DNA from: Bugula neritina
Lineage: Eukaryota; Animalia; Bryozoa
NCBI GenBank assembly: GCA_964035545.1
Contig: OZ037765.1
Span: 9,744,698-9,808,697, forward strand
Direction of reading: 5' to 3'
Length of the DNA: 64,000 nt
Part shown: positions 8,900 to 33,380 of the stretch, piece by piece
Layout: every line of letters starts with the position of its first letter
Position numbering within the stretch: the first letter of the stretch is position 1
Notes under the pieces: generated by a model
The model's database searches: none
What the model saw: only the letters and a program-made list of their open reading frames with translations
What the model was told of the DNA's origin: nothing
Program-made: the position numbers and the translations under genes

Positions 8900-8900
8900 C

Positions 8901-9206
8901 TGTTATAGTTTTCAGATTTAGGGTCGATGTGCCACCAAGAGAGTCTATTTATCACTAGAGAAACTTCACCGAGTTAAGTCGAGTAGATATCGTTATATTT
9001 TATCACAAGAATACATAATAAAATCTAATGTACAACAGTAATGATACGCACGTCTATTTAATTTACAGCACTATCCTCAACTGAGCTAGTAGCGCGAAGC
9101 TGCTACTATTACTCATAAAACAGCCTAGCTAATTGGCTAATACATTGTTCCGGGTCAATACGCAACCTTGCGTATTGTGTTGCTGGTAGCTCCACGAGCC
9201 ACCACA
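8901..9206 (-). repeat. 5' LTR of element A
   Basis: Identical to 2351-2656 and adjacent to the PBS. Confidence 0.97.
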
Positions 9207-9319
9207 ATATCAATTTACCATTATATTGCCAAATTGTTTACTTTCTTATTGATAATAAATAACTTGTTGTTTTTCAAAACTTCTATGTTTTGTAAAAAAT
9301 CTATATTGATAATTAATAT

Positions 9320-9855
9320 TGTGATAGATTCTCATCCTTTACTGTAACTGCGTGTGTCAGTATTATAATTACTGTTGCGTATATTTTGAATGCTGTAATT
9401 GTAGCTAAGTTGGGCTAGCTTTCTAATGCCTTATTATTGTGATTGTTGTTAAAGCTTTCAGTATAATGTAATTTTCATGAAATACTGTGATAGATTGTGC
9501 CTTGGTTTTGTTGTTTGCTAAATAATGTTAATTGAGGTCCGATGTTTGGAGTTCCGAGTTTCGGCTTGTCCGAAGATCGGTCCTCCCGATCTTCGGCCCT
9601 GCCGAATTTCGGAGCTACCGAACTTCGGACCACACACACAAAAGATTCTTTGTTCTATGTTCTTTTGTTCGCTGTATATAAAAGCAGGCGAGTTACGGTG
9701 TAAAGTCAGACTACTACTGGAGCTCGCTGGTAGTAGGACCACATAAGCTGTATCTGATGCAAATAAAGTTATCTTTCATTCGTATTCAAATACTTGGCTT
9801 ATTCTCTCTAGAGCATGTAGGCACTAGTTGCATTCAAAACCCACAGTTTACTACA
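9320..9855 (+). repeat. 5' LTR of element B
   Basis: TG...CA ends. TATATAAAA at 9675-9683, AATAAA at 9762-9767. Copy at 16078-16613. Confidence 0.97.
9539..9628 (+). promoter_or_regulatory. Array of six CCGA-N3-TCGG palindromes in U3 of the element B LTR
   Basis: Motifs start at 9539, 9554, 9570, 9586, 9602 and 9618 (15-16 bp period), ending about 45 bp upstream of the TATA box. The regulatory role is inferred. Confidence 0.6.
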
Positions 9856-9856
9856 T

Positions 9857-9874
9857 TGGTGGCAGCGGTGGGAT
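9857..9874 (+). other. Primer-binding site of element B (tRNA-Leu)
   Basis: TGGTGGCAGCGGTGGGAT is the exact complement of the metazoan tRNA-Leu(AAG/TAG) 3' end including CCA. Confidence 0.9.
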
Positions 9875-9905
9875 TTACGAATAACTAGTTGCCGAGCGGC
9901 ATACA

Positions 9906-10811
9906 ATGGTCCCAGGGGACTCAGCCCCTGAGGCAGCGGGAACACCAGCCCTCACTGTTGAGGCGTTGGTCGCAGCCCTCCAGGGATTGCGAGGGCAAAG
10001 TCAGGCATCACCTGGTGACAGGTATCGCCTCCAGCCCCCGAATTTCGGAGGAGAAGGAGACGTAGAACAATTCATCAGGGAGTTCCAGGATGTGGCCACC
10101 ATCGCTGAATGGCCAGTACGGGTGCGCATCCTCCAACTTCGGGCCTGTCTGACAGGCCGGGCCAAGAGCTTCGCTCTTGGGCCTGATGAAGAGCACATCA
10201 TGCGGGCTCTCAGAGCCCAGTTCGGCCTAACAACCGAAGAAGCAGCTGATCATTTGCAGATAATGAGGAGGGACCGGAGGACTCCCCTGGAAGACCACGC
10301 AAACGAGGTAGAGCGCCTGGCTCAGGCTGCTTTCGGTCACGCCACTGGCGACGACCGGAAGCGCCTCGTTTATAACGCGTTTTTCCGAAGCGTGAATCAC
10401 CCGGACCTGCAGCGATACTGGCTGGCTGCCAAGGTCAGCAGTATAGAAGAAGCGCTGGAAATGGGGAAGGCTTACTTCCAGGTGGAAGAGCCTAGGCGAC
10501 CGAGCTATACAGCCCGCCAAGTGGTCGAGGAGCATGAGGAGACCACCCCACTTCCAACTCCACAGGTAGCAGCAGCTGCAACTAAATCACCCGAGCAGAC
10601 GCAGCTCACCATGTTAATGGACATGATGAAAGGCCTGCAGGCTACGGTGACGAAGTTGCAGAGCGAACAGGCGGATAGGCGGGCTCCCCGATCACGGGAC
10701 AACCCTGTCCGCCCATCTCTGCTAACCTGTTGGGGGTGCGGGGCGCAAGGGCACGTGAGGAGGCACTGCCCTAGAGGCCAAGGGCTTTTAAACACCCAAG
10801 GCTCACGGTAA
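9906..10811 (+). CDS. gag: gag of element B (301 aa)
   Basis: ATG ORF after the PBS with a C-terminal CCHC knuckle CWGCGAQGHVRRHC. Confidence 0.93.
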   Translation: MVPGDSAPEAAGTPALTVEALVAALQGLRGQSQASPGDRYRLQPPNFGGEGDVEQFIREFQDVATIAEWPVRVRILQLRACLTGRAKSFALGPDEEHIMRALRAQFGLTTEEAADHLQIMRRDRRTPLEDHANEVERLAQAAFGHATGDDRKRLVYNAFFRSVNHPDLQRYWLAAKVSSIEEALEMGKAYFQVEEPRRPSYTARQVVEEHEETTPLPTPQVAAAATKSPEQTQLTMLMDMMKGLQATVTKLQSEQADRRAPRSRDNPVRPSLLTCWGCGAQGHVRRHCPRGQGLLNTQGSR

Positions 10812-10831
10812 CTTCCGCCAACCGTGGGCCT
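10787..10831 (+). promoter_or_regulatory. -1 ribosomal frameshift signal of element B
   Basis: T_TTA_AAC in gag frame (10787-10793), 5-nt spacer, 11-bp stem 10799-10809/10821-10831. The -1 frame stays open into the protease. Confidence 0.85.
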
Positions 10832-13800
10832 CACGCCAATCCCATCCGGGATAGGACTCGGAGAGGAGAAGAAGAGACCTCCACAGGGTCTGCTGATACC
10901 GAGTGGCAGAGGCCACAGAGATCTCGGAGACCGCAAGGTCTACCCGATCCTTTGGCCGGGTCATTCGAGACCCGGATGCAACTAGAAGAAGCAGGATGGC
11001 AGGCACCTCGGAGATCTCGGAGACCGCAAGGTCTACCCGATCCTCCGGCCTGGCCACTCCAGAACCGGTTCGCGGGGTTGCCCGAGGAGGTTGTGGAGGA
11101 GGATTCAGCTTACTCGCAAGAGTACCCCAAGCTACCCTCCCGACCTCAGAAAACCCCCGTTGTCTCTAAGACGAAGAGGAGGCCCGCTGTGCGGACCCAA
11201 GTTGTGTCTCCCCCAGAGACTGACCGCTCCAGGAGCACCCAGCCGTATGGAAGCAGCTACTTCTTGCCCGGAAAGATTTCGGGTAAAGCTGCCACATTCC
11301 TACTGGATACTGGGTGCACTACCAACCTGCTGAGTAGGCGTCTCTTTGACACTCTTGGTGCACGAGAGCGGGCGAGCCTCGAGCCGTATGAAGGTGCGCA
11401 TGGTACGTTGGCGGACGGATCATGCATTCCTTTCTACGGCGTCATTTCACTACCTGGACGCGTCCGTGATCAAGCAATTCACGAGACGTTCATAGTCAGC
11501 CAGCTGAAGGAGGACGCCATCCTGGGAATGCCGTTTCTGGAGAAACACCAGTGTCACATGGATTTCCAAAAGTCAGTGGTGGTGATGGCTGGGAAGGAAC
11601 TTGTCTGCGTCGACAAGTTCGGAAGGCCCTTGGTGGGCGGAGTCCAGGTAGTACGGGACTGCACAGTTTCGGGGAGATCCCAGGCGACTCTTTGCTGCAG
11701 AGTCAACTGCAAAGGGATCGCCGGCCTGGGGGTGGTTGAGGGAACGCACGGAGCGATCCGACTAGCAAACAGCCTGAATCGGCTAGATTGTCGGCAGGAG
11801 CTCCTCGTGCAGTGCATCAACCCCTTCACGGAACCTATCCGATTATCGGCTGGAGCGCTGGTGGGGAAGTACCACTCCATCCAGGAAGCGGATGTGGGTC
11901 CGGCACTGGAGACAGTGGCCGACACCCAGGGGAACCCCACTCACACCAGACGAGGAGCAGTCCCGGAGCATATGGCTGACCTGTATGATGGAGCGTGTGG
12001 AAACTGTACAAGTAGTACTGAACGCCAAGTACTGGCTCAACTACTTGCGGAGTACAGTGATGTCTTCAGTTGTGGCGATGGAGACATGGGGCTGACCAAG
12101 GTCATCTCCCACGAGATACTCCTGGCAGCCGGCACCACTCCCATCAGGCAGCCTACCCGGCGTCTAGGCCCGGAGAAGGAGAAGGAGGTGAGCCGACAGG
12201 TACAGGATCTTCTCGACCGGAATCTGATTGAGCCTGCCCACGGTGCGTGGAGCTCTCCAGTAGTCCTGGTCAAGAAAAAGGATGGTAGCTGGAGATTCTG
12301 CGAGGACTACCGCAGACTCAACAGTGTTACCATCTAGGACGCCTACCCTCTCCCACGGATAGATGAGTCTCTGGATGCCCTCGCGGGTAGCAAGTACTTC
12401 AGTACTTTGGATCTGCTTAGCGGGTACTGGCAAGTACCCCTCAGTCCTGATGCCCAGGACAAAGCAGCGTTCATCACCCGCGACGGGCTCTGGAAGTGGA
12501 AAGTACTGCCATTTGGACTAACGTCCGCTCCGGCAACTTTCCAACGGCTCATGGAGCAGGTCCTCAGTGGGTTACACTGAAAGACCCTCCTCATCTATCT
12601 GGACGACGTCATTGTCATCTCCCCAGATTTTTCGACTCATGTCAGTCGTCTGCGGGAGGTCTTTGACCGTCTCCGGGCAGCTGGACTGAAGCTGAAGCCC
12701 TCCAAGTGCGCACTCCTGCAGCCGGAAGTCACGTACCTGGGCCATGTGGTTGGCCGTGATGGGGTCGCTACCGATCCCGAGAAGGTACAAGCTGTAAAGG
12801 AGTGGACTGTCCCCCGTGACCTCCCTGAGTTGCGTGCATTCCTGGGCCTAGTAGGGTACTACCGGCAGTACATACCTGGTTTCGCAGGAGTGGCTCAGCC
12901 GTTAAATCGGCTGACCGCCAAGGGGGTCCGGTGGCAGTGGACGCAGGAGGAGCAGCAGGCATTCGACCACCTCAAGCAACAGCTAATGGAGGCGCCAATT
13001 CTGGCGTATCCTGATCCAGCCAAGGAGTACATCCTGGACACCGACGCCAGCGACCACAGCGTGGGAGCTGTCCTGTCTCAAGTCCAGGGTGGAAGTGAGG
13101 TGGTCGTGGCTTACTACAGCAAGACTCTCGCAGCCGCCGAGAAGAACTACTGCACCACTAGGAAGGAACTCTTAGCAGTAGTCAAGGCGGTCAAGCACTT
13201 TCGGCCATATCTGTATGGGAGAACGTTCCGTTTGCGAACAGACCATGCATCACTGATATGGCTATGTAAACGTGCAGAGCCCTCGAGCCAGGTGGCTCGT
13301 TGGCTAGAGATTCTTGCCGAGTTCTCTTACCGGATAGAGCACCGTGCAGGCCGGAAGCATGGGAACGCTGACGGCATGAGCCGCCGGCCGGTAGAGGACT
13401 GTAAGCAATGCCTACACATTGAGAAGCGGGACGGGGGACCCGCTCGCCTTGATGTGGAAACAGAGTTAGGGGAGGGCGCCGTCTACCGGTGGGAGCACGG
13501 CCATCTTCGGACCGAAACCCACTCAGACGGCGTCCAGGCACTCCACGCCAACCCCACTCTGTACCAGAATGTCAAGGAGCTGTGCCGACTCCAGGAGACG
13601 CTACCCGGCGCGGTAGCAGACATTTTCCGCGCCAAGAAGGAGGGCCGACGACCTAGCGAGGAACAGCAGCGGCAGGGAGATGTTGAGTTCCAACTCCTCT
13701 GTCGTCGCTGGGATGCCCTCAAGGTCAGTCCTGATGGCCTCCTGATGATAACGTTAGCAGCAGACAACCGTCAGCAAGAGAGGGACCGCGTCGTCTGTCC

Positions 13801-15892
13801 ACGCGCCCTCCGACGGGAACTGATCTGGGACACCCATAAGCAGGCTCATTCTGGAGTCAGTCGGGTCATCAGGTGTCTGCGGCTGCGTTGGTATTGGCCC
13901 GGAATGACTCGGGACGTACGACTGCGGGTACGGCAATGCGAGGTCTGCCAAGCTAGCAAGTATGGCCGCCCCACGGAAACCACTGGTCGACGCCGGCTAT
14001 ACGCTGGTCGACCGTGGCAAGTAGTGGCGGTAGACCTCGTCGGGCCTATGCCGTTATCCGCCAGAGGGAACACCTGGATACTGGTGCTCACGGACCACTT
14101 TACCCGGTGGGCAGATGCTCTGGCTATTCCAGACGCAACAGCCCCCACGGTGGCCCGGACCCTGGACCAACATGTGTTCTGTTACCTCGGTTTACCCGAG
14201 CAGATACATACGGACCAGGGTGCCCAGTTCCAGTCCCAGCTCATGGGAGACCTCTGCCGGATATGGGGGGTGAACCAGAGTCGGACCACCCCATATCACC
14301 CGCAAGGAAACGGAGTCGTCGAGCGGAACAACAGGATGTTGGGTGACGCCCTCAGGAGCCTGCTCCTTGGTCGAGGTCAAGAAGAATGGGACGTGGTGCT
14401 GCCGCAAATCATGCAGGCTTACCGCAGCACACCACACTCCGCCACGCAGGAGACCCCAAACTTCCTGATGCTAGGCCGAGAGACGCGGGTTCCAGAACAC
14501 CTGACATACCATGTTCCTGTCCCCGAGTCACCGGTACACGAATACGTGGAGGGTCTGGTAGACATCATGGGCAAAGCTCATGATGCACTGCGTACCCAGC
14601 AGTGGCAGACCCGCACAGAGGACTCGGAAGGGCCCCCGTTGTACCAGGTGGGAGACTGGGTCTGGATGGTGAGCTACCGTAGGCGACGCGGACAGTCGGC
14701 TAAACTTCAGCCCAAGTTTGTCGGTCCCTACTGCGTAGTGGAGGTGCTGCCCAACCACACGTACCGTGTGGAGCGCTCTGAACAGGTCTCGGTCCAGAGC
14801 GAGCAGCGCCTGAAGCCTTACCATGCCAGCCCAGACGCAGTGGGTGAGACTCCACCCCTCCTGGAGCCCCACCGCCAGCCCAACCGTCGAGGACGGGCCA
14901 CCCAGCCCCGAGAGGTGGAAATTGTGGTCCCTAGAGAGGCGGACCAGGAGCAGGCCGCCTTGCTGGAGCAGCTGGAGCGACAGCAGAGAGAGGAGCGGGA
15001 GCAAGAACAGCAGCAAGCCCTAGGACCACCACCACCCTCCCTGGGGGAGGACACCCCCACCCACGTGTTGGGTGAAGGCGGGGACCCCCCTACTAGGGTA
15101 GCCCAGGAGCCACTGGCACCATCAGCGCCTGCTCCAATTGAGAGGAGCCAGCGGTCACGCAGATCCCCCAGATACCTGGCAGACTATGCTGTAGGGCACC
15201 TGGAGTGGCCCCCTCATGAGGACAACCAACCCAGTACGAACGACCACCCCATCTTGGCTGGAAATTCCCTCCATCACCCCGGAGAATTCCACCAAGAAGA
15301 AGATTTCACACAGCTAGCACGTGAGTTACAGCTTAAGTTGAATTCTAATCCTGATACCCCTAAGTATAATTTAAACACTGTTATTCAGACACTAGCATCA
15401 GCTATGGGTATTACCTTGCCAGATACCCAAACAGAGGAGCGTAAGGATACCGAGGAGGCCAGTCAATTCGACTCCCCTCCCCCACCAGCTCCTGTTTCGG
15501 CTCCCTGCAGCCAGCAGGACGACACCCCCTCTTTCGAGGTGTGTTCCGCCAGCGTTAGTGGCCCTGACCCCGAACCGGTTGAGCTCCAACTCACAGCTGG
15601 GGAGGAGCAGGGCACTCTATACGGCGACCACCCCGCAGGCAGAGACGAAGAGGACTCTCCAATACTGGCAATGCCTCGGGCCCTGGTCGCCCGCCAGTAT
15701 ATGATATCTGGAGCACCAGGCAGCCAGATAGAAGAACAGACTCAGCTAACCCACCCACAATTGCCCCGTCACGGGCAGAGTATGGCACTTCCTTACCGAG
15801 AGTGCGTCCTGGATAGTGCAATCCAGGCCTGGTCCCGTATCCTCGACCCATGTACAGAAGGGATAGAAAGCCTGGTGCACCACCTCCAATGA
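10787..15892 (+). pseudogene. pol: pol of element B with in-frame stops
   Basis: Single frame: protease LLDTG, RT YLDD, RNase H, integrase HHCC plus D-D-E (AVDLV, HTDQG, VVERNN), GPY motif, long acidic/Pro-rich tail. TAG at 12335-12337 (Q in element A) and TGA at 12578-12580 (W in element A). Confidence 0.93.
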
Positions 15893-16046
15893 TAAAACCT
15901 GACAATTAGGGGCCGCTGGCAATAGCCACCTGGACTGTATATATTCTCTTGTTACGTGTGATTAATCATAATACTTTTCTGTTAACCGCATATTTTTCTA
16001 CGTTTGTGTTTCATTTTTTTTTGTGTGGAGTCATTGTTTTGTTATC

Positions 16047-16077
16047 AAAAAGGGGATGCTTTTCGATGGGGGGAGAA
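16047..16077 (+). other. Polypurine tract of element B
   Basis: AAAAAGGGGATGCTTTTCGATGGGGGGAGAA directly before the 3' LTR. Confidence 0.85.
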
Positions 16078-16613
16078 TGTGATAGATTCTCATCCTCTAC
16101 TGTAACTGCGTGTGTCAGTATTATAATTACTGTTGCGTATATTTTGAATGCTGTAATTGTAGCTAAGTTGGGCTAGCTTTCTAATGCCTTATTATTGTGA
16201 TTGTTGTTAAAGCTTTCAGTATAATGTAATTTTCATGAAATACTGTGATAGATTGTGCCTTGGTTTTGTTGTTTGCTAAATAATGTTAATTGAGGTCCGA
16301 TGTTTGGAGTTCCGAGTTTCGGCTTGTCCGAAGATCGGTCCTCCCGATCTTCGGCCCTGCCGAATTTCGGAGCTACCGAACTTCGAACCACACACACAAA
16401 AGATTCTTTGTTCTATGTTCTTTTGTTCGCTGTATATAAAAGCAGGCGAGTTACGGTGTAAAGTCAGACTACTACTGGAGCTCGCTGGTAGTAGGACCAC
16501 ATAAGCTGTATCTGATGCAAATAAAGTTATCTTTCATTCGTATTCAAATACTTGGCTTATTCTCTCTAGAGCATGTAGGCACTAGTTGCATTCAAAACCC
16601 ACAGTTTACTACA
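16078..16613 (+). repeat. 3' LTR of element B
   Basis: Near-identical to 9320-9855. Confidence 0.97.
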
Positions 16614-16935: not shown

Positions 16936-19590
16936 TTAAAGATCAGTTTGGGGTCTATTGGCAATCCATTTCTGTATGTTTGGAAGAGCTGTTACCCTCT
17001 GAACTAGTTCATATACACCTTTGTGTGCTTTGATAGCCTCCAAACCAGGTCCATCCTTATACTGCTCCAGCAATGACACGGTCACAAGATCAGCCATGGA
17101 AACCTGTACACATGCAGATAGTGGTAGAATGTTGCCTAATGAACAATTTGTAAATTATGTTTAGAAAATTATAATTTGCTCTAATATTGAACAAATAAAC
17201 ACTTTTTAGTTGCCTTTTTCATAATTTGCTAATACTTTGTGATGTGCAAACAGATTAAAAAGTATTTCATATTTAATGTAGTAAAATACATTATAATATA
17301 CTCTGACATAAAACACTAAGAAGCATATAATATAGCTCTACTGGCTTTTATAGTTGTGAGAATATGAAGTTCATTTGAATATAATCCAATTCTAACTGCA
17401 AACCGAGTAAATTTTTAGCAGAAATGAAATAGAAATAAGAATTAAAATGAAGTAGCTTTTTATTTGCAAGAAAAGTTACTTTTGGAAAATAACATAGAAC
17501 CAGCTAACCAAAATGTTTTTGAGGCTGGCTGGGTTTCATATAAATGAATAGTCATTTATCAGATATATAGTTTTTTTCAGGTTTATAATTGAATTGTATA
17601 TATAGGTCTATATGCTATATATCTCAAGCTTTATAATGGTGCCAAAATTGTCAGCTGCCAAACCCAATTTTCTGTGATTACCTTCACTGTCAGAGCTTTT
17701 CAGCATCTATTTGGGTAATATGCATTGATGCCACTAACAACAGAAATATTTTTGGTTGTGAATTTTTATTGCTGCCAAAATGCCACATTTTTTGTTTTTA
17801 TATTATATGTTACCTTTTTCCCAACTAGCCAATCTTTTCCACCAGACAACCTGCCAGCCAACAACTTCAAAAGTTTTGGTAGAGATACAGAAAAGTATTC
17901 TTTAAACATCTCAGCCTAAATAAAGCATGCATGTATTACAATAGTCACACAAGTTGTGCTTATGTTATACAAGATTATTTTCCTTTTTATTTGTAGTAAT
18001 TAATATAACTTTAAATTAAAGCTATTTTCTTTTATCTTTGAAAATACTCAAAAGTAATTTTTTATGCTGCTGAAGCACGTTGTGAATGGTATATATACGT
18101 CACTGTATGTAATACTCTCAGTGCCATTTAACTAATTTGAAATGGACATGTATTGAAAATTTCACCATTTTTTTGCAAATTGAACACTTTTTTAAAATTA
18201 GACTTGTTAATATAATGTTAAAGCAAGCATATACAAATAAAAGATGTATAATATATGTTATTCATGAAAAGCAGCATAAGCATAATTCAACATTTTCAAA
18301 AATTATTCGCTTAGTACTCCAATGTTTTACATGTTTGTTACTGCATTCTGTTGGGATGTTCTTAAGTGCAAGAAGTTACTTCATATATCTTATATTTTAA
18401 TTATGATAAAATGTGCTTAATACACTCAAAATACAATAATATTGTTAGTACATTAAATCTCCAGTAATGGGGGTATGATCAATGTCTATTTATAACAGTT
18501 AAATGACGAAATTGCAGTGTATACACAAATAGTACCTATCTTAGTTTCTAGTTTAAAACATTCTACCTAGCTGCTTATACCTGTTTGTCCTTATCTTCAC
18601 AAAAAGCAGCTTTTACAGAGGCATTGAATGCATCTTGTGTACACTCCCAAATCATATGGATTAATGCAGCTTCAATGTTATTGCAACCAATAAGACCTAA
18701 AAAAGAAAGATAATTTCAATTTGATGATTTAATTCACCCATTTTACTGTTTTTGTAAGTATATTATCTTGTATAGTTATGGCTCAGTTGTATTCAGCTAA
18801 ATGAGTGTCTAATGTACATATCAGTGCAACAGTATTTTCCTCATGACAAACTTTCTATTTCAGATAAATACTAGGAGTGCTACCAGTTGAATGACCCTGA
18901 GGTCAATATTGTAAATTAGAGGTAATAAAACCAAGTAAACTGATGTCTTCACATTTAGTGCCAAACATATTATTGGAGTGCTTTAACCAAGTTGTTTTCT
19001 TTGCTTCAACTATAAGTTTTATAATCAGTATACATTATTTGTTAGGATAATTCATTCCAGCACCAGATATTTTTTATAGATGCAATAGCTGTACTAACAA
19101 CTTCATCTTACAAGTTAAAGCAATGAGCATTCACACAGCTCAAGCAAAGAAGGTGATAAACTTTCTTTAAAAATACATGATAGTTTAATGAGTTAAGTGG
19201 AGGTAACATAGTTACCATATTCTCTGGCGACATACAGAGCTATAGCTCCAGAAGTAGCTACTGATTGACCATCAGATTCCAAATAAGGCAAAGAACCAAT
19301 TGGAGTGCCTGTAGAATGCAAGAACATACTAGATTGGTATGCAATCTACTAACAAAGCTTCAAGGAGTACATACAAAATAATCGATTGATAAATGAAGCC
19401 ATTATTTGAATCTCAAGAACACAGATTTAGAACTGATGCTAGATGACTTACTTGGTTTAACAGATGGCCAGTCTGCAAACTCTATTCTCTTATCCTCCCA
19501 TTTAGCACCTCCTTGAACTAAAATCCATCGGATCTGTTCAGCACGTCCTCTGCCATTGAAGTATACCAACTTAACATTAGAAGGTGCCAT
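16936..19590 (-). CDS. Glutathione S-transferase, sigma-class-like, cytosolic (GST-1)
   Basis: Exons 19590-19452, 19308-19216, 18696-18581, 17915-17814, 17103-16936, all GT-AG and in frame. Motifs [46 protein letters not shown]. Confidence 0.92.
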
Positions 19591-21642
19591 TTTGTTTAAT
19601 AGTCTGATGCACTACGTCCACTCCCCAACAGTTTACACTAACTGACAAGTCTTGAAATCAGCTTATTGTAATCTGATATATCAGCAGATTTGGTGATACT
19701 GAGCAAAACTATCATGCTTGATATAATATATTTCTCTTATACTTTCTGCAAACAGCAAAACCAAACTACGCAAATATTTTGGGACTTATTGATATGCAAT
19801 GGTATAGATATGCCTAGCTACAACACCTTAGGTTGCTTTGGTTGGCATGCTTGTTTTAGTATGTGGGCATTTGTTATGTTTGTATTTAGATAGAAATGAT
19901 TATGACAACCAGTTTTTTATCAATTAATGTAAATATTTGTCTTTTCAAAGCCTTTTTATACAAGCTAATGATAATCAATCTAATACCTATATTGGCTGAA
20001 TGGGTAGTTTAGGGGTGGGTACAGTTTACAAACACATTTTATGTCAACTTTTTGAAATTCACAGTTGGTTTAAGGTCATACTTTTCATTTTCTGGCTCTT
20101 TGCCAGGTGCTTTATGTTCTATATGAACAATGTTCCACTGATAGCTCGAACAGGTCGAATGTCACAGGAACAAAAAAAATATGAAAAGATAAAGAAACTT
20201 ATGTTCTCCAATATACTTTTTTATTTTTTTCAAAAGCCAATTCATGTTTAAGTTATAGCTTGTTGAAAAACATAGTCCCCCTTCCACATTCTTTTCAATT
20301 TATACGCTCCTGACTTGTTATTGTGTCTCAATATGCCTTGTATTTGAGTGCTTGTTAGTCTCGCTTCACTAACTTTGCCTATACTTCACAAGTGCCAGTG
20401 CTGCTGGCTCAAAAGCTAAATGTTATAAACTGTCAGCTAAAACCCAATCTTGTATTCCTAGGTTGGTTGGCCTAAATAAAACAATAGTCAAATCATGATT
20501 TCATGTTTTAAAAATTTACTCTATTCTAACCTGCTGCCTAGCTAGTTCTATTTTTGATGTATAATTACAAAATTTGTGATACATTTTTTTGGCAACCATG
20601 TGATTTATAAAATGCAGTAATGGTACTTACAATATTATATTATTATCATTATAATATATTATATAGTATTATGTGTGTTTTTATTATACTGCATAATATC
20701 TATTTTATTATTGTTGTTGTGCAAACAAGTGCAATTAACCTAGTTTTCAAAATGTACCTCTAAATTATCAGAATATCAGTTTAGATATTTTCATGCTTTG
20801 TAAGGTAAACCTAAAAAAAGAGGCTGTATTCCCAAAGTAAAGGGTGTTGAACTATGAACTATATTAGATTAGCCACTCTGCTACCAAGTGCATCAGTATA
20901 ATATTATATGAATAGCTCTGATGCTTTGTTTCCGGTGGCTGGCTGCGATATGATAACTTGGCCAACTTCCAAGAGTTTAAAATTGGCGCAATTATTCAAG
21001 AGGTTACATACTGCACAGAGCTAGCAGTGATAGTAACCGTGCTATTGGCAGTACTTATTACAACTGCCAGCATATAAGCTGCATTGTAGAATGCCGTTGG
21101 GGTAGGCTATTAAAACCAAATTCTGCTCTCTAATATACCTAAGACACAATGCAGCAACATAATTGTTCATTTCAAATTACATTGCCACCCTTACATGAGC
21201 TGTGGGCTTCATAAAGATTCATATGATTAGAGATTTATGCTATAGGCTAGCTATGATGAAAATAACACACCATTGTCAAAGTTAACTTCAAGTATGTTGT
21301 TTTCCAGAAACTCAGTAATGTCCATTTATCTCTCGCATACAAATACTTATGTAATAGCATACAGTTTAAGTTTTATTTTAGAGCACATCTGCAAACTCTA
21401 CAATAAGAGCTTGCTTTACCAGTCTATTTCAGACCTGTTTTTGTAGCTAGTAATACGCAAGCTACTTATTTTTAAACTTTTGGGTTATTTGTTCAAAACC
21501 ATTAGCTTTGCTAGTAACCCGAGACTATTGCAACAGTTGACTGCTATCAACATGAATTGACAGCCTAATAATTATAACCCGTTTGCGCGCGAAATATTTA
21601 TGTAATGATACTGACTCATATAGTGCGCGTCTCATTATCGAT

Positions 21643-21723
21643 GACTGCGTGGTCCAGAGGTTAGAGGCGTCAGCGACGAGTTAGTTGGTCATGGTTCAAC
21701 CCTGTTTTGTTGCAATTTTTTTT
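21643..21723 (+). mobile_element. tRNA-derived SINE-like head
   Basis: A-box-like TGGTCCAGAGG, B-box-like GGTTCAACCC, then a T-run. No clean cloverleaf. Confidence 0.4.
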
Positions 21724-23222
21724 GTCAATTTATGCAAATCCTACGCATGTATAATAAATATGGCTATAAGTGTAAAGTTTTTTTTTAACTTTTGTTCAAC
21801 AGTAAGACAACATACATGCATAATAATTAGATACTGAACGCTGGACTAAACCTTAAATTGATCTTATAGAATACAATGTACTTAAAATAATCATATGTGA
21901 ATTAGAGAAACTGAAAGTACACCTGCTGCGCTATAGACAGACCTTTACTGACAAGACTGCAAAGTGAAGTGATTTAGCTGAAATTAACTCTGCCAAACAA
22001 ACAAAGAATTATGTTGTGCTGAGGCATTTTCAATATATTATTGTAACATAGTGAGATGATTCAGCTAAGTGCTAATGTAAAACAGGGAACATTATCTTGG
22101 CAGAAATCCAATAGATTGCCAATTTGTGCGAGAGGGTCCTATATGTTATTGTGATAGCGCAGAGCGGCAAACGTACTAGGAATGTTATAATTAGTCACAG
22201 GAGCGTAGCTAGAACCACCATATGAAGAATTTAGAAAATTGCAGTGAAACTTGCAAAATGGTGTATGTTTTTACCAAATTGTGAAGAGCATAAACAGAAT
22301 TTCAAAAAACAAAGAAAGTATATTAGAGAAAACATATCAAGGAATGTCAAGTTTAACTTTTAGACTTTATAAAATGAATCCCCTGTGCTACAGCAGTGGA
22401 ACATGGAGGGTATAAAATTTTACTTATTATGCAACAACTTTCTCAGAAAATTTTTTATTGAAAAATTAAAAAAGTATATGAAAGAGGAATGCAAGAGCTA
22501 TCTTTCCATGTAAAATTTGTTAATGTGAGACAAAAACTGTTCGAGCTATCCCCTGGAAACCGTTTATATATAACATAAAGTAGTGCTTGAATCTGGAAAG
22601 TAATGACCTTAAACTAACTGTGTTAAAACCAAGTAAAGTTTTGAAAACCAGAGTGAATAATTCTTTTAACTTAAAAGTTGTTTTTTGGTATATGGTAGAC
22701 CATTATAAAATTTTTCTTTATTTTATTAAGCCAATGTGTGCCTACAAAACACACTATCAAAGTGCATGAAGCACTTGGATGGGCTGATTTGAAATCCACC
22801 CCTTAAACTTGAGAGGCGTTATAGTATGAATAAAGGGTAAAATGCTTAATCATAGTTTAAACTTAGAAAAATTTGCTTTGTAATCTTTAACACAGCAGAT
22901 TTCATAAGTGTAAAAATACCCTTGCATGGCATTTTCAGTTCTAACCTGCATAATCATTGTTCAACAAAAACAGTTTATTGTATAAAAATTATCAAAATAT
23001 TAATATGGCAGAGCCTTTTTTATTAGAACAGTATTAGGCTGTCCGAGATAAAAATATTCTAAGCGTAACCTTATGTTAAAACAACTTTCATTTTGCTGTC
23101 AATAAATATATATTGTTTTGTATTACAAATTCTAATGAAGTTAGCTTATTTACCATAATTATGTTTATATTGCAAAATACTAAACAACACCGTATATTTA
23201 TAGTACTTGCCTGCTGTTGCTA

Positions 23223-24146: not shown

Positions 24147-26786
24147 TTAGTAATCGTTGTATGGTCGATGGGCAATCCAGTTCTTGATTCTAGGTAATTC
24201 CTTGACCTTCTTAGTGAGAGCTGAAAGTGTAGGAGAATTTTTCACAGCTTCGGCAGCTTTTCCGGTCTGAGTATCCAGCAAACTGGCAGTTACAATATCA
24301 GCAGCTGTCAGCTAAAAACAAAAAACTTGTGTGTGTTAAGGTAATGTGCAAACATCTCAAATATTTGCATTTCACATATGTCTATATGTTTTTTTAAGTT
24401 GAAGTGAAACTGCTGACTGAAATAATAAAAGTGTTATTTAACAAACATGATCATTTTGCATTCAATAGCTTTGTCTGGTTTAAAAAATTTCTATATTGGC
24501 ACATATGCCCAAAGGTAACTTTGTTTATGCCAAACTTTTTTTACTATATTATACTTTACCTTATTTCCCACTAGCCATTCTTGACCATCTTTCAATCTGT
24601 TTTCTAGGAATTTAGTTAGTATTGGGAATCTACCATTGTCGTAATCATTCTGTCTTTGAATCTACAAAAATATCTTTTATAGAACTCAGTTGTTTTATGG
24701 GTAAAAATGGATATTTACTGTGACAATATATTAGAGATATGGCTCTAATAATTATTTAGTTAAAATATTATAAATGTTTATAATATACTTGTTTACATAA
24801 CCACATAACCTATCAGCAAATATTCTAGTGAATTGACAATTTATAGGTATAGGAACAGTCACATCACATTACCCTGGTTGGGTTGTCAGGAGCAAATCTT
24901 ATATTAACTTGATCATTAAAAGCTTCCTGCACAGTCTGCCAAACCATGTGAACTTCAGCAGCTTCCAATTCGTTAGATCCTACTAAATCTACAAAATAGA
25001 AAAAATAAATTAAAGTATTTTATAACCATAATATGCTCTAAAGCCTTATACTCAGTTATATCACTAGACATTACTAGTGAGCCTGCAATATATTAGCTTA
25101 AAGCGTTCAAATTACAAATGTCTCAAATGTAGTAACCTTTATTGCTTTCTTAAAAAAGTAATGAAAATGAAAATAATATTTATTTTAGTCCGAACAACAA
25201 ACACTATATCAGTGATTGGTCGGGAGCTACAATAGTATTTCCCAGAGAAGATGTTACTGCTAACCTACACTCTGCATAATGTTCTGGTACTAATAAGTAA
25301 TAAGTAATGTTAAGGTTCACTCTTGTAGAGCTTATATGTATAGCAAAATGCTCAGTAAAAGCATGCTATTAGATAGCTATAAAATTTCACTTTTACTGTC
25401 ATATAATGAGTTATCATCAACGCTGAGCTAGCAAGAATAATGATAAAATAACAATTCTCTATATAGAATTATTAACCATCGCAAAAAATAAACTGAATCC
25501 AGTCTGCAAATCATGAGCAGTAGAACACTTACTGAGCTCTCTAGCCAGATACATGGCAACAGCAGCAGACTGTCCCAGTGTGACATTCTCTACTTCTAAG
25601 AAGGGCAACTGGCCAAGTATTGTCACTGTAACGGCATTCAAAAATATAATGTAGTTAAAGGAAGTTAGCTGGTTCAATGATTATATTAAAAAATGTTTTG
25701 AAAATTGTTGATATAGAAAACAGTTTTAAAAAAGTTATTAGCATTTTGTATAAGAATAATTTTTGAATTTTAGCACAACTGACTGGGTTTGATTTTAGGC
25801 CAGTCTTCCAACTTGATTCTGATATCCTCCCAGTTTGCTTCTCCCTGTTCCAGAATCCACCTGATTTGCTCTGCTCTGCCCCGTAGGTCAAAGTATGTCA
25901 ACTTGTACAATTCTACACAAAATACATATATTATTACTATTACTTCTTTTAAAATCATTACAAGATTATGAAGTGATAACTTGAGAGATATTTTTACAAG
26001 ATTGGGGTTTGTTGATTTATTTATTAATTTTTTATTTATAGCTTTAAAATGTTTCAGTTTTTTATGTCCATAAAAACTCTGTTTGCTAAATTCGAAAGTT
26101 ATCAAAGCAAACCACTATGTAACATATTACATACATGCATACAGCAACCTTTTTAATTATGAATTAATTATTTTGTATAGTTATCCTAACTGCAGGCTTT
26201 ACTATAGTTGCAAAACATTTATTTTGCCATACATAGCTACAAATATTTTTTAGTCAGTGTATAGAATACAAATATCATGTATATTTTGTATGTAGTATTT
26301 GGGAGCTTTAAAGTTACCAACCTACCTATTACAAAGACAGGTAATCTGTAAACACTTAACAAACTATGTAGAATATCAAAAGTGTCTAATAAGTGCATTA
26401 TGTAAGTATAAATAATACATTGATGTTTTTTTCTCTCATTTTGCAGAAGATATTTATAAAACACACTTTATGCTACATTAAGCAGAAAAAAATACATTTA
26501 AAGCCTTTTTTATAGCACCAAAAATGCTAAATGTAAAAAGACCTCCAATGCATGAAAACTTATATAAGTAAAAAACAATAATGATTTTCTTAAAGGAATC
26601 TTTGTTAGAACATATAATGTACTTACTTCCACACTTTTTACAAATCTTAGGACAGAGTTTTTGATAGTATACATTGTCTCTACACAAGTCTTCTCTGTAG
26701 GTACATAAGAGGTCATCTTCACAAGCTTTCGCCTGGACGAGGGCAGCAATGCCCACTAAAACTAATAAATTGAGTAAAACGTTCAT
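24147..26786 (-). CDS. Signal peptide-ShKT domain-sigma GST fusion (GST-2)
   Basis: Exons 26786-26627 (signal peptide plus CEDDLLC-x6-C-x9-CPKICKKC), 25912-25784, 25625-25533, 24988-24873, 24661-24560, 24311-24147. A phase-1 junction joins ShKT in frame to [19 protein letters not shown]. Ends [10 protein letters not shown]. Confidence 0.88.
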
Positions 26787-26862
26787 GGTGTGTGCAACAG
26801 CGCGTACTGGTCAAGCTGTTACAGGCTCCAAGCTACAGATGAGGTTGGAGATAAAATACAGC

Positions 26863-26870
26863 TTATATAA
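26863..26870 (-). promoter_or_regulatory. Candidate TATA box of GST-2
   Basis: TTATATAA on the minus strand about 80 bp upstream of the ATG. Confidence 0.45.
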
Positions 26871-29433
26871 CCTGGTTTTTACCCTCACCTAGGGGAAGAT
26901 AGTGGTCAGCAAACAACAACTTTAGCATAGTTTAGATAAGAGAGAAGCTCTCCTAATGTTTTCAACAAACATAGCTTGGGAACTAGCTCCTGGTGTTTAC
27001 AGAAAAATAGCCCAAGACTGTATGTATTTGATAATACTGTGCATATCTTATAGAAAGCTGGCTAATGTGCTGCATATGATTTCAAATACTCTTAGCATAG
27101 TTGTGTTACTTTGCACAGTCTTTTTGAGAGTTACTCCTTTCTGTAATTTATATATAATTAATGGTTTCTGCAACTTTGTTACTCCCATATCTAATTGGAT
27201 AAATGATTCAAATTCTACTACTCTAATAATTCTGACCTGATTAATCACCTTTGTGACTAGCTCTCACTTGAAGTTGTAGCTTTTCTCCAACATTCAAGAC
27301 CAATCCCGCTAATCTTTTACTTATGAATTAAATATAATTATTTTTTTTTCTATCTAAGCTATCAACTAGTTCCAATATATTGGGGCAGCCCTAAGTTTAA
27401 TGTAATCTTTAAAACTCTAGTAAATAGTTTCTAATTGACTGGGATGGGTTTACAAACTGTTGCGAACATTGAAATTATATTTAATTATAGTAGATATAAA
27501 CTTCAAAATTACTACTAGATAATAATTAATATAGACTATATAAATAGTCCTACAGAAATCACTTTTCTGTCATATAAGACTTAACTACTGGTTAAAATAC
27601 TGTGCCAATGTTACAATCACCAGGACAGTGCATTGTTTATGTCTAGAAATAGCAAAATGTCCAGGAAAATGTAATGTTATAGTACCAGGCAGTTTCAAAG
27701 TTTTAGCAAAATTATCAACTAATTAAAGGCACCCCCAAACCTAATTTGAACATTTAAATACAGCATGAAAGAAAATTTAATAGTCCAAGCTCTTAAATTT
27801 CCTAATTAGGTAATTTTGGTTTGGTTTAAATTAAACTTAATTAAAATTTTCATTAAAATGTTTATAAGAACGTAATTTCTTTTTCTACATTGTCTTAGAA
27901 TGCTGACTTTTTCTTAATGTCAACGTTTTAAAACAACGTATGAGCGCCTTTTAAATGATTGTGGTTGGCATGTAAAACGTAAAGGCTGGTATCAATTGTG
28001 CAAATGTTATTATAATCATAATGGTCAATGTTTGTTTTAAAAGATGCATAATAGCCACAACTACCACTCATAATCAACTCTAAATCCATTTGATTAGCAT
28101 GAAGCTTTTATCTTCCTTAGTGTTTCTGATAAAACTGTTTAGTGGGAGCCATCAGGTGGGGTGACATTGCAGTTTATAATCTAATTTTATTTTTAGCCTA
28201 ATTAAACCCATGTGCCCACGTTTAGTGAGTTGGTAGAAAAATTGTAAATTGGAAAATAATTATTTTACCAATTAGGCCTACAATGGTTACTAATATTACT
28301 CTGTTAAACAATACAAAAGTTGCGCAAATTTTTATTTATGATTTATGCAATAAAATAAAGGGAGATAAAAATGCCTGTTCTCTCCCCCATCTCCACTTTA
28401 TTCTGATTGTTCATGCTACAATCTTTATGCAGAGCTAACAATAATTATACATTACTTGACTCTAGATATATTGATTTGAATGTTGCAGGAGAACATTTGG
28501 AATACTTTGAGAGAAGACTTGGAGCTAGAGTTATTAACCTTCAAGCCAGTCTTCACAGTTTCAAGCAATTTACTGTGTTGCTAACAAAAAACCTTTGGAA
28601 TGGGCCAATGGCTACACTCCATCTACTAAACCGCCAGCCTCAAAATTATACCCCAAATTCCTTTGCTTTAGTTACAAGTTTTATTAGGATTGTTGGGATC
28701 AATTTTTTAGACTACACAGCCTTCAGCTAAGCAAAGTTTGTGCTAGTGTGTATACCTGAGTGGAGGATAGAAAGTTCAATCATCAGCTAACTTATTTTCA
28801 GCAGCTCTACACAGTAAAGTTTATGTATTGTGTTGGTTAAGTTGGTTTGAATATGTTTTACTCTTTTTTAACAAAATTAAAGCCATAGCCATTATTCTTT
28901 TTTTAGTCCCATGCCTATTTTTCCATGCACATAAATATCCATCAAATGTTTTCATATCACATGAATTCACATTAAGTTATGTACTTTATTTCGCAACCAT
29001 TATAGGGCAAGCAAGAAGTTTCTATTCTTTCGAAACTGCAGTTTTATGTTTTTGCAGTACAATTATCCCTTAAACAAATATAAATAATTTTTGAATTTTT
29101 TAAGCTAGCTGTGATAACAATTTGTAAGAGCTTTTGTTGATCATTTTGAATTCAGCACTTCAAATTAATTTTTTGACTCCCAAGCTATTCTGTCTGCAAA
29201 GTTCAAATATGATTTATTGAATACCAAACAGCCACTGTATATGTGTATTAGTTATTACAGCAAGTATATATAATAGTATACATATAGGCCTACTATGACA
29301 TATATATTAAAATAACTACAGCTGCCTGCAGACCTGGTAATATAAATCCTGTTCATTTTTTATTGTTTTAGATGCAAAACTGGAAAAACCAAAGCAGACA
29401 AGAAACTAAAGCTAGCTGTAACAAAAATCATCT

Positions 29434-31734
29434 TTAGTAATCTGTGACAGGTCGAGTAGCTATCCACTGCTTGATTTTGGGTAGACTGGTTACTTTGCTG
29501 GTTAGATTTGAGACAGTTTTAGAGGCTTTGAGATCTGCAAGGGGCTTTGGCCAAACCTGGCTGTCCATGAAGCTTGCAACAACAATGTCTGCTATTGTCA
29601 TCTGTAACAGGATACATGAATACAAGTAAATGTGGTAAGAGCACAGAGGTCAGCTGAACCTGTTATAAATAATTTGTGTTTGTCAAAATTATGTAACAGG
29701 ATACCTGCTTGCCAACTAGCCATTCTTCTCCATTTTCAAGTCTCTTTTCCAAAAACTTCATTAATCGGGGAAATGATACATCATCATATTCTTTAAGCTT
29801 CACTTGCTAGAGAAGTATAATAACTAGCTTAAGGTAAACCCTTTTTTTTGTAAGATTTGTACGAGTAGGCCTATAGGTATATCATGTTTCACTAAAATGT
29901 ATTTATTGACCGGTGAGTAGCTACAATATCTGCTGTCTAAATAATATTGTTGAATATTTTATTTCATTTTCACAATACAATAGACCACCAAACACTATAA
30001 CACTAAAAATACTGATATCTCAAAATTATTACAACAAAATTATGTATCTTAATATCTGACCTTTTTCGCTGGGTCTTGTTCAACAAAAGCTCTGCCCGCT
30101 GAATTGAAAGTTTCTTGCACAGTCTCCCAAACCATATGTACTTCTGCAGCCTCCAAATCATTTGCACCAGACAAACCTACGCACATAAATTGTTCTCTGT
30201 AGTTATGAATGGATTATTTTCTACAGCAGATCCTGAGGTTTATATAAATTGTATCTAATGCCTAGTTTTAAAGATTTTATGAGTGTATTGAAAGTTGATA
30301 TGAACCTATTTAATGCAATAACATTGACAGCTTGTTTAATGTATAGTGATGCAACTTTTTAATATGGGATTTTTTATGATTTAATAAATACCAAGTTCTC
30401 TAGCAAGATACATGGCAATGGCTCCAGACTGTGCTATGGTGACTCCTTCCACCTCTAGATATGGTATTTGCCCAGTCAGAGTTGCTAAAATAGTAAAAAT
30501 ATAATTAAATATCTAACACAAATCACTAAACAACTAGGAATCGAGCTTATCTATAATCTATATGTATATATACAAAACTTATTTACTATGAAAGTATAAT
30601 ATATAAGACATTATAATTTGTAATGTATAATGTATAATGTATAATGTGTAATGTATAATGTATAATGTATAGTGTATAATAATATAGTGTACAATAATTA
30701 TGCTCTAGGTTATGTAAAAAACAATTATTTTCAAAAATCTGACGTATCATATTTTTCATCAGCTCACACAACAACTAAAATTTAATTTCTTGAAGAATTT
30801 ACAGCACACATACCAGTTTTGGTTTCCATTAACTGACGCAATAATAAAGAATCAAGTTCAACGTTAAGATTTAAATGCGGGTTAACTTATAGACAATGTG
30901 CATATCTAACTTGGTTTAATTGCAGGCCAATCTTCTTGCTTGATTCTGATATCCTCCCAGTTAGCATCTCCCTGTTCCAGGATCCACCTGATTTGCTCTC
31001 CCCTGGCTCGAAGGTCAAAGTATGTCAACTTGTACAGCTTATCTAAAATTTGTACATAAGCAAAAAATATTTTAAAGCTTTTTAATAATTACACTTTGCA
31101 GCCTTATAGTGAGACTAATTTTATCAGTACAAATTATTGGCTTAAATACACAACTCTATAGTTTCTTCTAAAAAAGATTTTGAAAATGTGAGTAAATTTA
31201 TTTAAATTTTTGGAGCAATATATTATAGCTTATACACACTATATAATATTGCTCAACATAGTAAAAGCCCTTCTTTAGATGCACAACTCTGTGCTACAAT
31301 TTACAATACATATTTACAATATACATCCAACACTGTATCATACATGTATTCATTGTATAGTTATATATGCGCCACATTACACAGTATACCACAAAAATGC
31401 AGTTGCTAATGTTGCATATAACAAAGTAAATCCATTAGCTTACACAAAACCATAATGTACTATATATGACACTGCTTAATGGCTGTTCTAAAGTTGTTGT
31501 TATCTATTTCTCCTTGCATCCTGCAAGCAAGAACATGCCTAATAACATAATATTGTATCAAACTAACAAACCTTTACATAAACCACAAGATTTAGGGCAA
31601 AGCCTTTGAAATCCAATTATTGAGTCACATAATCCTGTTCTTGAACTGCACAAATCGCTAGTATCTACACAATCTTGTGCGTTGCAAATATAGAAGAAGG
31701 TTAAAAAGACAAAAAAAGGGAAGCCACCCATCAT
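29434..31734 (-). CDS. Signal peptide-ShKT domain-sigma GST fusion (GST-3)
   Basis: Exons 31734-31572 (MMGGFPFFVFLTFFYICNAQD plus CVDTSDLC-x6-C-x9-CPKSCGLC), 31042-30911, 30484-30392, 30176-30061, 29806-29705, 29601-29434, all in frame. Motifs YFDLRARGEQIRW, GQIPYLE, AQSGAIA, WIATRPVTDY*. An upstream in-frame ATG exists at 31761. Confidence 0.88.
30623..30680. repeat. (TGTATAA)n heptamer repeat in a GST-3 intron
   Basis: About 8 tandem copies visible. Confidence 0.85.
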
Positions 31735-32639
31735 GGTAGAAAGTCGTAGTTGCTGTGTCATATAAGCCCGCAGTTGATTATGGAAAGTTTATGTACTGCA
31801 ACAATCACTGATAAGGATGCATATGCAAGCTTACCATGCTGTGTAGACTGTGCAGCTGTCCTTATAAATATCTAGTAATGCTTATCACAATGAATATTTT
31901 TTCACACTTAGAACTGCCGTTATATTGTTTCACTTTTTTTAGCCTAAATATTAAATCCATATCAATGTTTCTTTTTTTAAGTTAGTCAGGAGATTCTATG
32001 CTCTATAGGATTTGGATTAAATGGGAAATTTTAGTTTTCATTTATTTTTGTGATTTATTTGAACATTGAAACTTTTTACATTGTTTAAAAAAACATTTTC
32101 ATGTTCAAATAGAGCAGATGAAAACATAGTTTACCAGCTATTTTCATGACCTGCGGGGAAACTGCGACTAACTGGGTTACATATTGAAAGTGTAGGATTT
32201 GTTTCCTCATGACATAAATAGCATATCCATCGAAAACGCTCTTTTTTCAGAAAGGTAGATTGCAGAGTCTGAGCGCAAAATTCATGCTTGGCCATAGCAA
32301 TAAAATACAATAAAATTAAATATAATAATAATTATGCTGTTACTGCTGTCTTAGTTTTATGGTGGCTTAGCAATAAATGTAATTATTACATATAATTATT
32401 TATGAATTAAATGTCTATAAACAAATCTTAATCACAGATAATAAATTTTTTGCAACTATTGTATATTAAATAATTGATCAGTAACTGTAAGGATTTTCAT
32501 TATAATTAATATTATTATATTAATAATTATTATTATATTTACAATATTATTATTAATATTAATACTAAAAGTAAAAATAAACAGTGTTACTCAACTCTAT
32601 TAGGCCTACTATTAGTCAGTATACACTCACAGTAAAACT

Positions 32640-33380
32640 AAATGTAATACAGTATTACTAATGCTAATACTAATACTAATAGTAATACTTATACTTATAC
32701 TTATAGTAATACTAATAGTAATAGTAATACTATTAGTATTAGTATTACTATTAGTCTATTACTAATAATAATATGAGTAATACTAATACAGTAATAGTAA
32801 TACTATTAGTATTAGTATTACTATTAGTCTATTACTAATAATAATATGAGTAATACTAATACAGTAATAGTAATACTATTAGTATTACTATTAGTATTAC
32901 TAATAGTAATAGTATTACTATTAGTATTACTAATACTATTAGTATTAGTATTCGTAATACTAATAGTATTACTATTACTATTACTATTAGTAATAATATT
33001 TAAATGCTAATAGTAATAGTAATGCTAAGAGTAAGTCTACTACTAATCGTAATACTAATAATAAAGTCTTAGTAATACTAATAGTAATACTAGTACTACC
33101 AATAGTGGCAGTGGTAAACGGCAGTGATTATCATTATGATTGAACTATAACTATAAGTTAGTATAAGTTAATGAGTATCAGTATAAGACTAAGAGTAAGT
33201 ATAACAATTAATATTATTCATTTACAATTACAATTTACATTGATATCATTATCATAATGATTATCAAGCTTACTTGAAGTTAAACTAAAACTTAGAGTGA
33301 TACTGATCAACTTTGAGATTATCATTATAATTAAAAGTATAATGATACTGATAATATTAATGAGTGATAACTATTATTAT
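32640..33380. repeat. Low-complexity 3/6-bp periodic AT repeat (TAATAG/TAATAC and complements)
   Basis: Degenerate hexamers in alternating orientation, with a 66-bp tandem duplication at about 32720-32885. Confidence 0.85.

Follow-up and report, generated by a model that had tools for sequence, protein, structure and literature searches.

How can a glutathione S-transferase (GST) of the sigma class, normally a cytosolic enzyme, come to carry a secretion signal and a toxin-like, cysteine-rich domain? The question is raised by a 64,000-nucleotide stretch of the genome of the bryozoan Bugula neritina (GenBank assembly GCA_964035545.1, contig OZ037765.1, positions 9,744,698 to 9,808,697 of the forward strand), hereafter the window, whose own numbering is used below. 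Exon modelling revealed three tandem GST genes on the minus strand of the window: GST-3, GST-2 and GST-1. GST-3 (31734-29434) and GST-2 (26786-24147) comprise six exons each and give open models of 257 and 254 amino acids, in which a predicted signal peptide is followed by an ShKT domain and then by a sigma-class GST. All ten introns of the two genes are of the GT..AG type, with phases 1, 1, 1, 0 and 0 in both. A preliminary description of this DNA had proposed that the ShKT exon splices in frame, in phase 1, to the GST exon; the models of both genes bear this out, being open throughout, and the two junctions that it had placed at 31572>31042 and 26627>25912 are exact in these models.

Exon 1 of GST-3 (31572..31734, minus strand like all exons below) encodes the predicted signal peptide (residues 1-19) and the ShKT domain (Cys22-Cys53), and has a phase-1 GT donor at its end. 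Its counterpart in GST-2 (26627..26786) encodes a predicted signal peptide of the same extent and an ShKT domain running from Cys22 to Cys52, and ends at a phase-1 GTAAGT donor. Exon 2 of GST-3 (30911..31042) starts the GST N-domain and carries the catalytic Tyr together with the Arg14 and Trp39 equivalents; exon 2 of GST-2 lies at 25784..25912. The cis-Pro loop and a Gln-Ser pair are found in exon 3 of GST-3 (30392..30484), and an N-V-T sequon in exon 3 of GST-2 (25533..25625). The models are completed by exons 4 (30061..30176 in GST-3, 24873..24988 in GST-2), 5 (29705..29806 and 24560..24661) and 6 with the stop codon (29434..29601 and 24147..24311). The GST exon had been described as devoid of a start codon. 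Exon 2 does lack an ATG, but intron 1 of GST-2 contains an in-frame one at 25958, from which 15 codons run uninterrupted by a stop to the acceptor downstream; GST-3 has no in-frame ATG between exon 2 and the next upstream stop. The third gene, GST-1 (16936..19590), is a five-exon cytosolic paralog with its own ATG and without signal peptide or ShKT, and its intron positions are the four downstream ones of the fusion genes. A profile built from both ShKT exons and two relatives detected no third ShKT exon in the six frames of the window, the next best match having an E-value of 0.2.

Public annotations contain the same exon 1-exon 2 joins. Two B. neritina proteins, 97-98% identical to the window models, were recovered: KAF6032757.1 (P0053; 256 residues, labelled HPGDS) matches the GST-3 model at 248 of 256 positions, and KAF6018812.1 (P0238; 254 residues, labelled GstS1) matches the GST-2 model at 248 of 254. 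According to PMC7576161, the B. neritina models were produced by AUGUSTUS with transcriptome hints. A profile search of 1.84 billion representatives, of which the best 150 of 10,556 matches were retained, returned the RefSeq protein XP_067951789.1 of Watersipora subatra (P0067; 263 residues), which also consists of a signal, a six-cysteine domain and a GST, and is 47-50% identical to the window fusions. The join is annotated in three public models from two genera, Bugula and Watersipora, and because other pipelines placed it identically in both species, a chance join is excluded. The ShKT-GST architecture that had been proposed from the DNA alone is confirmed by the exon models together with these annotations. 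In a third organism, a 936-nucleotide contig (P0222) encodes a signal and an ShKT domain, then about 55 residues, then GST exon 2; judged from the protein letters, the residues in between resemble a read-through intron. Sequencing run X1, which may be the source of the window, behaves as DNA and covers the GST-2/GST-3 part thinly, and is for these reasons uninformative on splicing.

Regarding secretion, the 11-residue hydropathy peak at the N-terminus reaches 2.45 in GST-3 and 3.23 in GST-2, against 0.69 in GST-1, and small residues occupy positions -3 and -1 before residue 20 in both fusions. Neither a transmembrane stretch nor a KDEL-type C-terminal end was found in the fusion proteins. From the hydrophobic N-terminus and the -3/-1 residues, the suggested secreted location is likely. 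The N-V-T sequon reported in GST-2 is present, at residue 110, but it is not diagnostic, as GST-3 carries N-L-T at 234 and the cytosolic GST-1 carries N-A-S; sequons were rejected as evidence of secretion because cytosolic paralogs have them too.

The six-cysteine ShKT domain, whose fold was initially described in toxins of sea anemones, is recognizable in both first exons, with the CxxxCxxC ending kept. Pfam ShK (PF01549, gathering cut-off 20.9 bits) matched exon 1 of GST-3 above the cut-off (26.2 bits, E = 1.2e-5) and that of GST-2 below it (16.6 bits, E = 0.012); among the relatives, P0053 (24.5 bits) and P0222 (21.4 bits) lie above, P0231 (18.9 bits) and the Watersipora fusion (15.0 bits) below. 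The cysteine spacing is 6-6-9-3-2 in GST-3 and 5-6-9-3-2 in GST-2, both ending in CPKxCxxC. As had been noticed, the two domains have diverged, with 14 of 31 residues identical, while keeping all cysteines, and both have the Asp/Lys pair, with Asp at Cys1+2 and Lys at Cys4+2. The Bugula-type domains and that of P0222 retain it; in Watersipora, Ala replaces the Lys. Between the paralogs, the proportion of nonsynonymous differences (pN) is 0.40 in the ShKT exon versus 0.06-0.33 in the GST exons. A profile of four ShKT sequences run against the PDB gave 12 matches up to an E-value of 10, headed by ShKT-Ts1 (E = 6.6e-4) and then the ShKT domain of MMP23 (E = 0.063). The predicted local distance difference test (pLDDT) score of AlphaFold2 for this domain was about 50 with a deep alignment and 70-75 with a 12-row alignment, the latter showing two short helices (26-29 and 39-44). 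Matches to the GST domain took up the fold-search lists, which therefore bear on the GST part and not on the ShKT fold.

The Lys22-Tyr23 dyad of ShK-type toxins is absent. The residues at Cys4-6/-5 are I/G, V/Y, V/G, V/Y, E/T and E/W in six sequences from at least three lineages, so that none of the six has Lys at Cys4-6, and none has Lys or Arg at -5 or -4; the register follows the ShK numbering and agrees with the Arg/Leu of MMP23. The net charge of the domain is 0, 0, -2 and +1. In five full-length sequences, no dibasic site was found in the ShKT-GST linker of 2-8 residues, although cleavage by other proteases is conceivable. The missing dyad, the near-zero charge and the short linker are more in keeping with a module that stays attached than with a toxin that is set free.

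The C-terminal part belongs to the GSTs: P0053 matched Pfam GST_N (43.0 bits) and GST_C_3 (61.7 bits), both over the cut-off, and its nearest sequences and folds belong to the sigma class. By sequence and fold, the nearest solved structures are sigma GSTs and prostaglandin D synthases. The VIA fold search was topped by 2hnl (Z 26.2, root-mean-square deviation 2.5 Å, 199 aligned residues), and AlphaFold2 pLDDT in the GST domain is mostly above 90. The glutathione-binding residues given in PMC4311449 are Tyr8, Phe9, Trp39, Lys43, Pro52, Gln63 and Asp97. Six of these seven are identical in P0053 and P0238, with Asp97 changed to Glu; the Watersipora fusion keeps Asp97 and has Glu for Gln63. The Arg14 and Ser64 equivalents are also retained in P0053 and P0238, and the catalytic Tyr, the Arg14 and Trp39 equivalents and the cis-Pro in all three full-length fusions. 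The helix-4/5 region of the substrate site varies among the fusions.

Trp104 of the hematopoietic prostaglandin D synthase (H-PGDS) aligns with Arg157 of P0053, and Asp93, Asp96 and Asp97 of its metal site align with Glu146, Gln149 and Glu150; none of the three fusions has a Trp at that helix end. The name HPGDS is therefore not borne out by the sequence. The label is an automatic one (eggNOG-mapper, as stated in PMC7576161). The GST part is free of cysteine in all three full-length fusions, compared with 8 of 62 other GSTs. This would suit transit through the oxidising secretory pathway, and because the three fusions are kin it counts as one event.

A two-copy model of P0053 residues 19-256 scored 0.82, versus 0.42 for the best control, with at least 89% contact agreement and a pLDDT of 89. 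The confident contacts of the modelled dimer lie within residues 100-188 and none in the ShKT domain, residues not named here staying uncertain. Among animal proteins with solved pair structures 7 of 16 attained the mark used, as did none of 30 eukaryotic single chains, and the pass may reflect memory of solved GSTs. The idea of a bivalent ShKT display is consistent with this prediction, in which the dimer would carry two ShKT domains.

Secreted, glycosylated sigma GSTs are known from parasitic nematodes, and OvGST1a/b of Onchocerca volvulus and OoGST1 of O. ochengi (PDB 2HNL) resemble the fusions in having a sigma-class fold (29% identity over 199 aligned residues), a cleavable signal peptide (predicted in the fusions), an N-terminal extension before the GST and a dimeric state (modelled in the fusions). 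Their extension differs from the six-cysteine ShKT of the fusions, as PMC6939172 describes it as 25 residues long and modelled as disordered; the same paper gives 5-6 sequons for them, compared with 1-2 at unconserved places in the fusions and one per window protein. The hosts also differ, a parasitic nematode in one case and a free-living bryozoan in the other, and the Onchocerca and bryozoan secreted GSTs probably have separate origins. With cytosolic sigma GSTs and H-PGDS (4Q5F, 5H5L, 1M0U, 1IYH), the fusions share GST_N and GST_C_3, the glutathione-site residues, 30-39% identity and template modelling (TM) scores by target of 0.83-0.90; unlike them, they add the signal peptide and ShKT, have a cysteine-free GST part and lack Trp104.

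Peroxidases, tyrosinases, prolyl hydroxylases and oxidoreductases that bear ShKT domains have been described (PMC5793123 and PMC13273113). These enzymes likewise join a small ShKT to a catalytic part, N-terminally in nematode redox enzymes, whereas in the fusions the partner is a normally cytosolic GST, and the portions available of PMC13273113, PMC5793123 and PMC6409789 name no GST partner. A redox role for ShKT on enzymes has been proposed, as an untested idea, in PMC13273113. ShK-type toxins share the six-cysteine framework ending in CxxxCxxC, and the Asp/Lys pair is found in the Bugula-type and P0222 domains; in contrast to these toxins, the ShKT domains of the fusions lack the Lys-Tyr dyad, are near-neutral and are joined to an enzyme of 200 residues, with no dibasic site for processing.

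How old is the fusion? Among 222 fetched proteins of at least 150 residues, the six-cysteine pattern occurred in four (P0053, P0238, P0067 and P0222) and a hydrophobic N-terminus in nine; the set was picked for likeness to bryozoan GSTs, so that a separate ShKT fusion on a distant GST would be missed. A careful 22-row tree was built on GST domains, leaving aside alleles that are nearly identical, two long branches and 27 further rows. In it, one clade (support 100/98) unites the Watersipora fusion with GST-2 and GST-3, the latter two lying next to each other (95/80). This clade falls inside a 9-row group (98/99) that also contains GST-1 and its Watersipora counterpart XP_067952115.1, which pair with each other (93/91) and are identical at 126 of 205 positions. 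A quick 53-row tree agrees, with an SH-like approximate likelihood ratio test (SH-aLRT) value of 97 for the fusion clade. Bugula and Watersipora belong to different superfamilies of Flustrina, and because the fusions form one clade on their GST domains alone, a single origin before the split of these two cheilostome superfamilies is indicated. The long selection suggested by the preliminary description fits a clade that spans two genera. In the simplest history, a gene within a tandem cluster of cytosolic sigma GSTs would have captured a signal-plus-ShKT exon in phase 1 in a cheilostome ancestor, and the fusion gene would then have been duplicated in tandem on the Bugula side.

The GST parts of GST-2 and GST-3 are identical at 126 of 199 positions. 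Exon 2 shows a nonsynonymous divergence (dN) of 0.06 and a synonymous divergence (dS) of 0.68 between the paralogs; synonymous sites of the other exons are at or near saturation, dS in the other GST exons ranging from 1.7 to saturation. At the DNA level, exon 2 is 86% identical between the fusions (25784-25912 versus 30911-31042), and gene conversion may be involved. A homolog search with exon 2 alone gave three plain GSTs among 43 candidates. Exon-2-only open reading frames closest to the fusion clade were seen in three ENA contigs (P0226, P0235 and P0236), with no obvious start of their own; they may mark the fusion in a further species.

A metagenome scan yielded 49 loci, none with an ShKT-profile match at an E-value up to 1. 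One match to residues 14-50, at locus L007, was rejected as intron or upstream sequence containing stops. The animal locus L012 (1419-11739) holds four tandem related GST genes, one of them partial, with exon borders as in the window genes, and no ShKT match within 12 kb. One of its genes has an acceptor-like, T-rich AG 11 bases before the ATG, an arrangement that would be in line with the fusions having arisen by exon capture. Another locus (L002, 1211 nucleotides, intronless) encodes P0002/P0004, a sigma GST that has no ShKT but does have a predicted signal peptide. Within the 9-row group mentioned above, its sister is the cytosolic P0005 (98/93), and Leu occupies the position of the P0005 start Met; this looks like a second, separate gain of secretion.

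We favor, with a probability of about 55%, the reading that the fusions are secreted, glutathione-dependent detoxifying dimers in which ShKT serves as a tether. The signal peptide would be cleaved after Ala19, the ShKT domain is predicted to fold with three disulfides, and the GST part would form the standard homodimer and be secreted. Outside the cell, the catalytic Tyr would activate glutathione for the reduction of lipid hydroperoxides or the conjugation of electrophiles, while the two ShKT arms might hold the dimer on matrix, cuticle or mucus, by analogy with secreted peroxidases and tyrosinases. Several points weigh against this. Extracellular glutathione is generally low, and a secreted GST must overcome this; the supply of glutathione is the main weakness of the favored reading. 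A retained glutathione site is no proof of catalysis, since S-crystallins are weak enzymes and one with bound glutathione ranked third in the fold search (5b7c, Z 24.7). The tethering by ShKT is drawn from analogy, the signal peptide was judged from hydropathy and the -3/-1 residues, and at the ShKT/GST junction the B. neritina models may have been predicted ab initio.

In a very unlikely alternative, the fusion would be an artefact of gene modelling or a minor isoform, with the GST exons using another start and the ShKT exon expressed by itself. The intronic ATG of GST-2 would suit such a start, an unspliced read-through of GST-3 would yield a 58-residue ShKT peptide, and AATAAA motifs are present in the first introns of both genes; these motifs are, however, expected by chance because the introns are 72-75% A+T. 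GST-3 offers no comparable ATG, the join is shared by the three public models, and in the P0222 contig, as in both paralogs, the ShKT exon has its place shortly upstream of exon 2, always with a fusion-clade-like GST. If the join is accepted, the protein could instead be a secreted carrier or structural protein, anchored by its ShKT, whose GST domain takes up glutathione and lipophilic ligands but, as in ligandins or S-crystallins, is a poor catalyst. The glutathione-bound S-crystallin near the top of the fold search, the divergent helix-4/5 region and the scarcity of extracellular glutathione speak for this. We consider it unlikely, given that the catalytic Tyr, the Arg14 and Trp39 equivalents and the cis-Pro are preserved in every full-length fusion and that the model aligns to sigma GSTs with no long insertion.

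Quite unlikely is a secreted prostaglandin H2 isomerase like Onchocerca GST1, kept close to its target cells by ShKT and producing extracellular lipid signals. The substitutions at Trp104 and at Asp93/96/97, the automatic origin of the HPGDS label and the grouping of the fusions with bryozoan cytosolic GSTs argue against it, though the tree held no Onchocerca or vertebrate PGDS row and is no test of that kinship. The preliminary suggestion of a prostaglandin synthase is thereby weakened. Prostaglandin D synthases are nevertheless among the nearest structures, and PMC6939172 presents OvGST1b and OoGST1, glycosylated sigma GSTs with signal peptides, as prostaglandin synthases with a pocket unlike the mammalian one; because of this different pocket, the missing Trp104 is compatible with an isomerase. 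A defensive function, in which the paired ShKT domains displayed by the dimer would act as blockers of predator or epibiont potassium channels, appears improbable. The ShK-like framework, with ShKT-Ts1 and MMP23 as nearest solved relatives, and the faster divergence of the ShKT exon are in its favor. The Lys-Tyr dyad is deemed essential for binding to voltage-gated potassium (Kv) channels, yet is neither strictly necessary nor sufficient (PMC6409789 and PMC5793123), and its absence is compatible with channel activity, as MMP23 uses Arg/Leu (PMC6409789). On the other hand, the Lys22 position is I, V, V, V, E and E in the six sequences, the neighbouring -5/-4 positions offer no Lys or Arg, and the domain is near-neutral; release of ShKT is unlikely because the linker is short and devoid of a dibasic site. 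The venom or Kv1 function first entertained is weak on the same grounds. A role specific to bryostatin was set aside, since the fusion also occurs in Watersipora, which is not known as a bryostatin source.

Beyond the favored detoxifying dimer, a bolder and doubtful reading would make the fusions targeted extracellular glutathione enzymes, whose two ShKT arms bind a specific receptor, channel or matrix partner at the cell surface or swap thiols with the glutathione site, thereby localising detoxifying or lipid-signal chemistry. If true, a disulfide-rich domain used for targeting would be seen on a GST for the first time, and the role of ShKT on redox enzymes could be tested directly.

Around the fusion genes, the window contains several other features. 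Between GST-1 and GST-2, a 2565-base element (20058-22622) is bounded by imperfect terminal inverted repeats of 27 nucleotides (85%); its depth in run X1 is hundreds of times that of the flanks, and one contig joins across it as an empty site. It is likely a non-autonomous DNA transposon, polymorphic here. Another X1 contig links 25740 back to 24092 with 33 letters between; either exons 3-6 of GST-2 are partly duplicated in tandem, or the assembly may be at fault. Two elements resembling long terminal repeat (LTR) retrotransposons lie in opposite orientation at 2351-16613, with direct repeats that are 100% (2351-2656/8901-9206) and 99.6% (9320-9855/16078-16613) identical; because the repeat ends are near-identical, recent insertion is suggested. 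The open reading frame 12581-15892 encodes domains of a reverse transcriptase, an RNase H and an integrase. A plus-strand gene, from 33660 onward, is separated from GST-3 by about 1.9 kb in a head-to-head arrangement and has a GHKL-type ATPase start (weak HATPase_c_3, E = 0.003), a motif reminiscent of PMS1/MutL. An A+T-rich low-complexity tract occupies 32500-33200, a 428-codon Thr-rich mucin-like frame lies at 47122-48408 (plus strand), and 49544-61247 (minus strand) holds a duplicated pair of carbonic anhydrase gene segments that share about 77-79% identity.

The preliminary description knew of no described ShKT-GST architecture, and none was found in the literature searched, supplements and subscription journals lying outside its scope. 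Passages of PMC4974336, the top paper with both terms, treat ShKT and GST separately; 'glutathione' and 'bryozo' are absent from the text of PMC6409789, and the main text of the B. neritina transcriptome paper (PMC4192642) contains no glutathione, GST, ShK or toxin. Among the listed ESM Atlas clusters of at least 50 members there was no pairing of ShK and GST, which is no proof of absence. The fusion proteins themselves are already in NCBI and UniRef under plain GST names, and A0A7J7K3F0 may have an automatically generated architecture entry. Each part has a close precedent, in the secreted Onchocerca GST1 and in ShKT on secreted redox enzymes; it is the pairing that is conserved and apparently undescribed.

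Secreted GSTs with classical signal peptides are rare and the characterised examples considered here come from parasitic nematodes; the fusions represent a conserved, probably secreted GST in a free-living phylum, with a domain pairing not found in the literature searched. They bear on what ShKT does on redox enzymes. At 235 residues, the enzyme is amenable to standard assays, and the cytosolic paralog next door and the signal-only P0002 provide a natural three-way comparison. For this family of enzymes, the fusions point to a route by which a cytosolic protein enters the secretory pathway, the gain of one exon, apparently taken twice in this group of GSTs.

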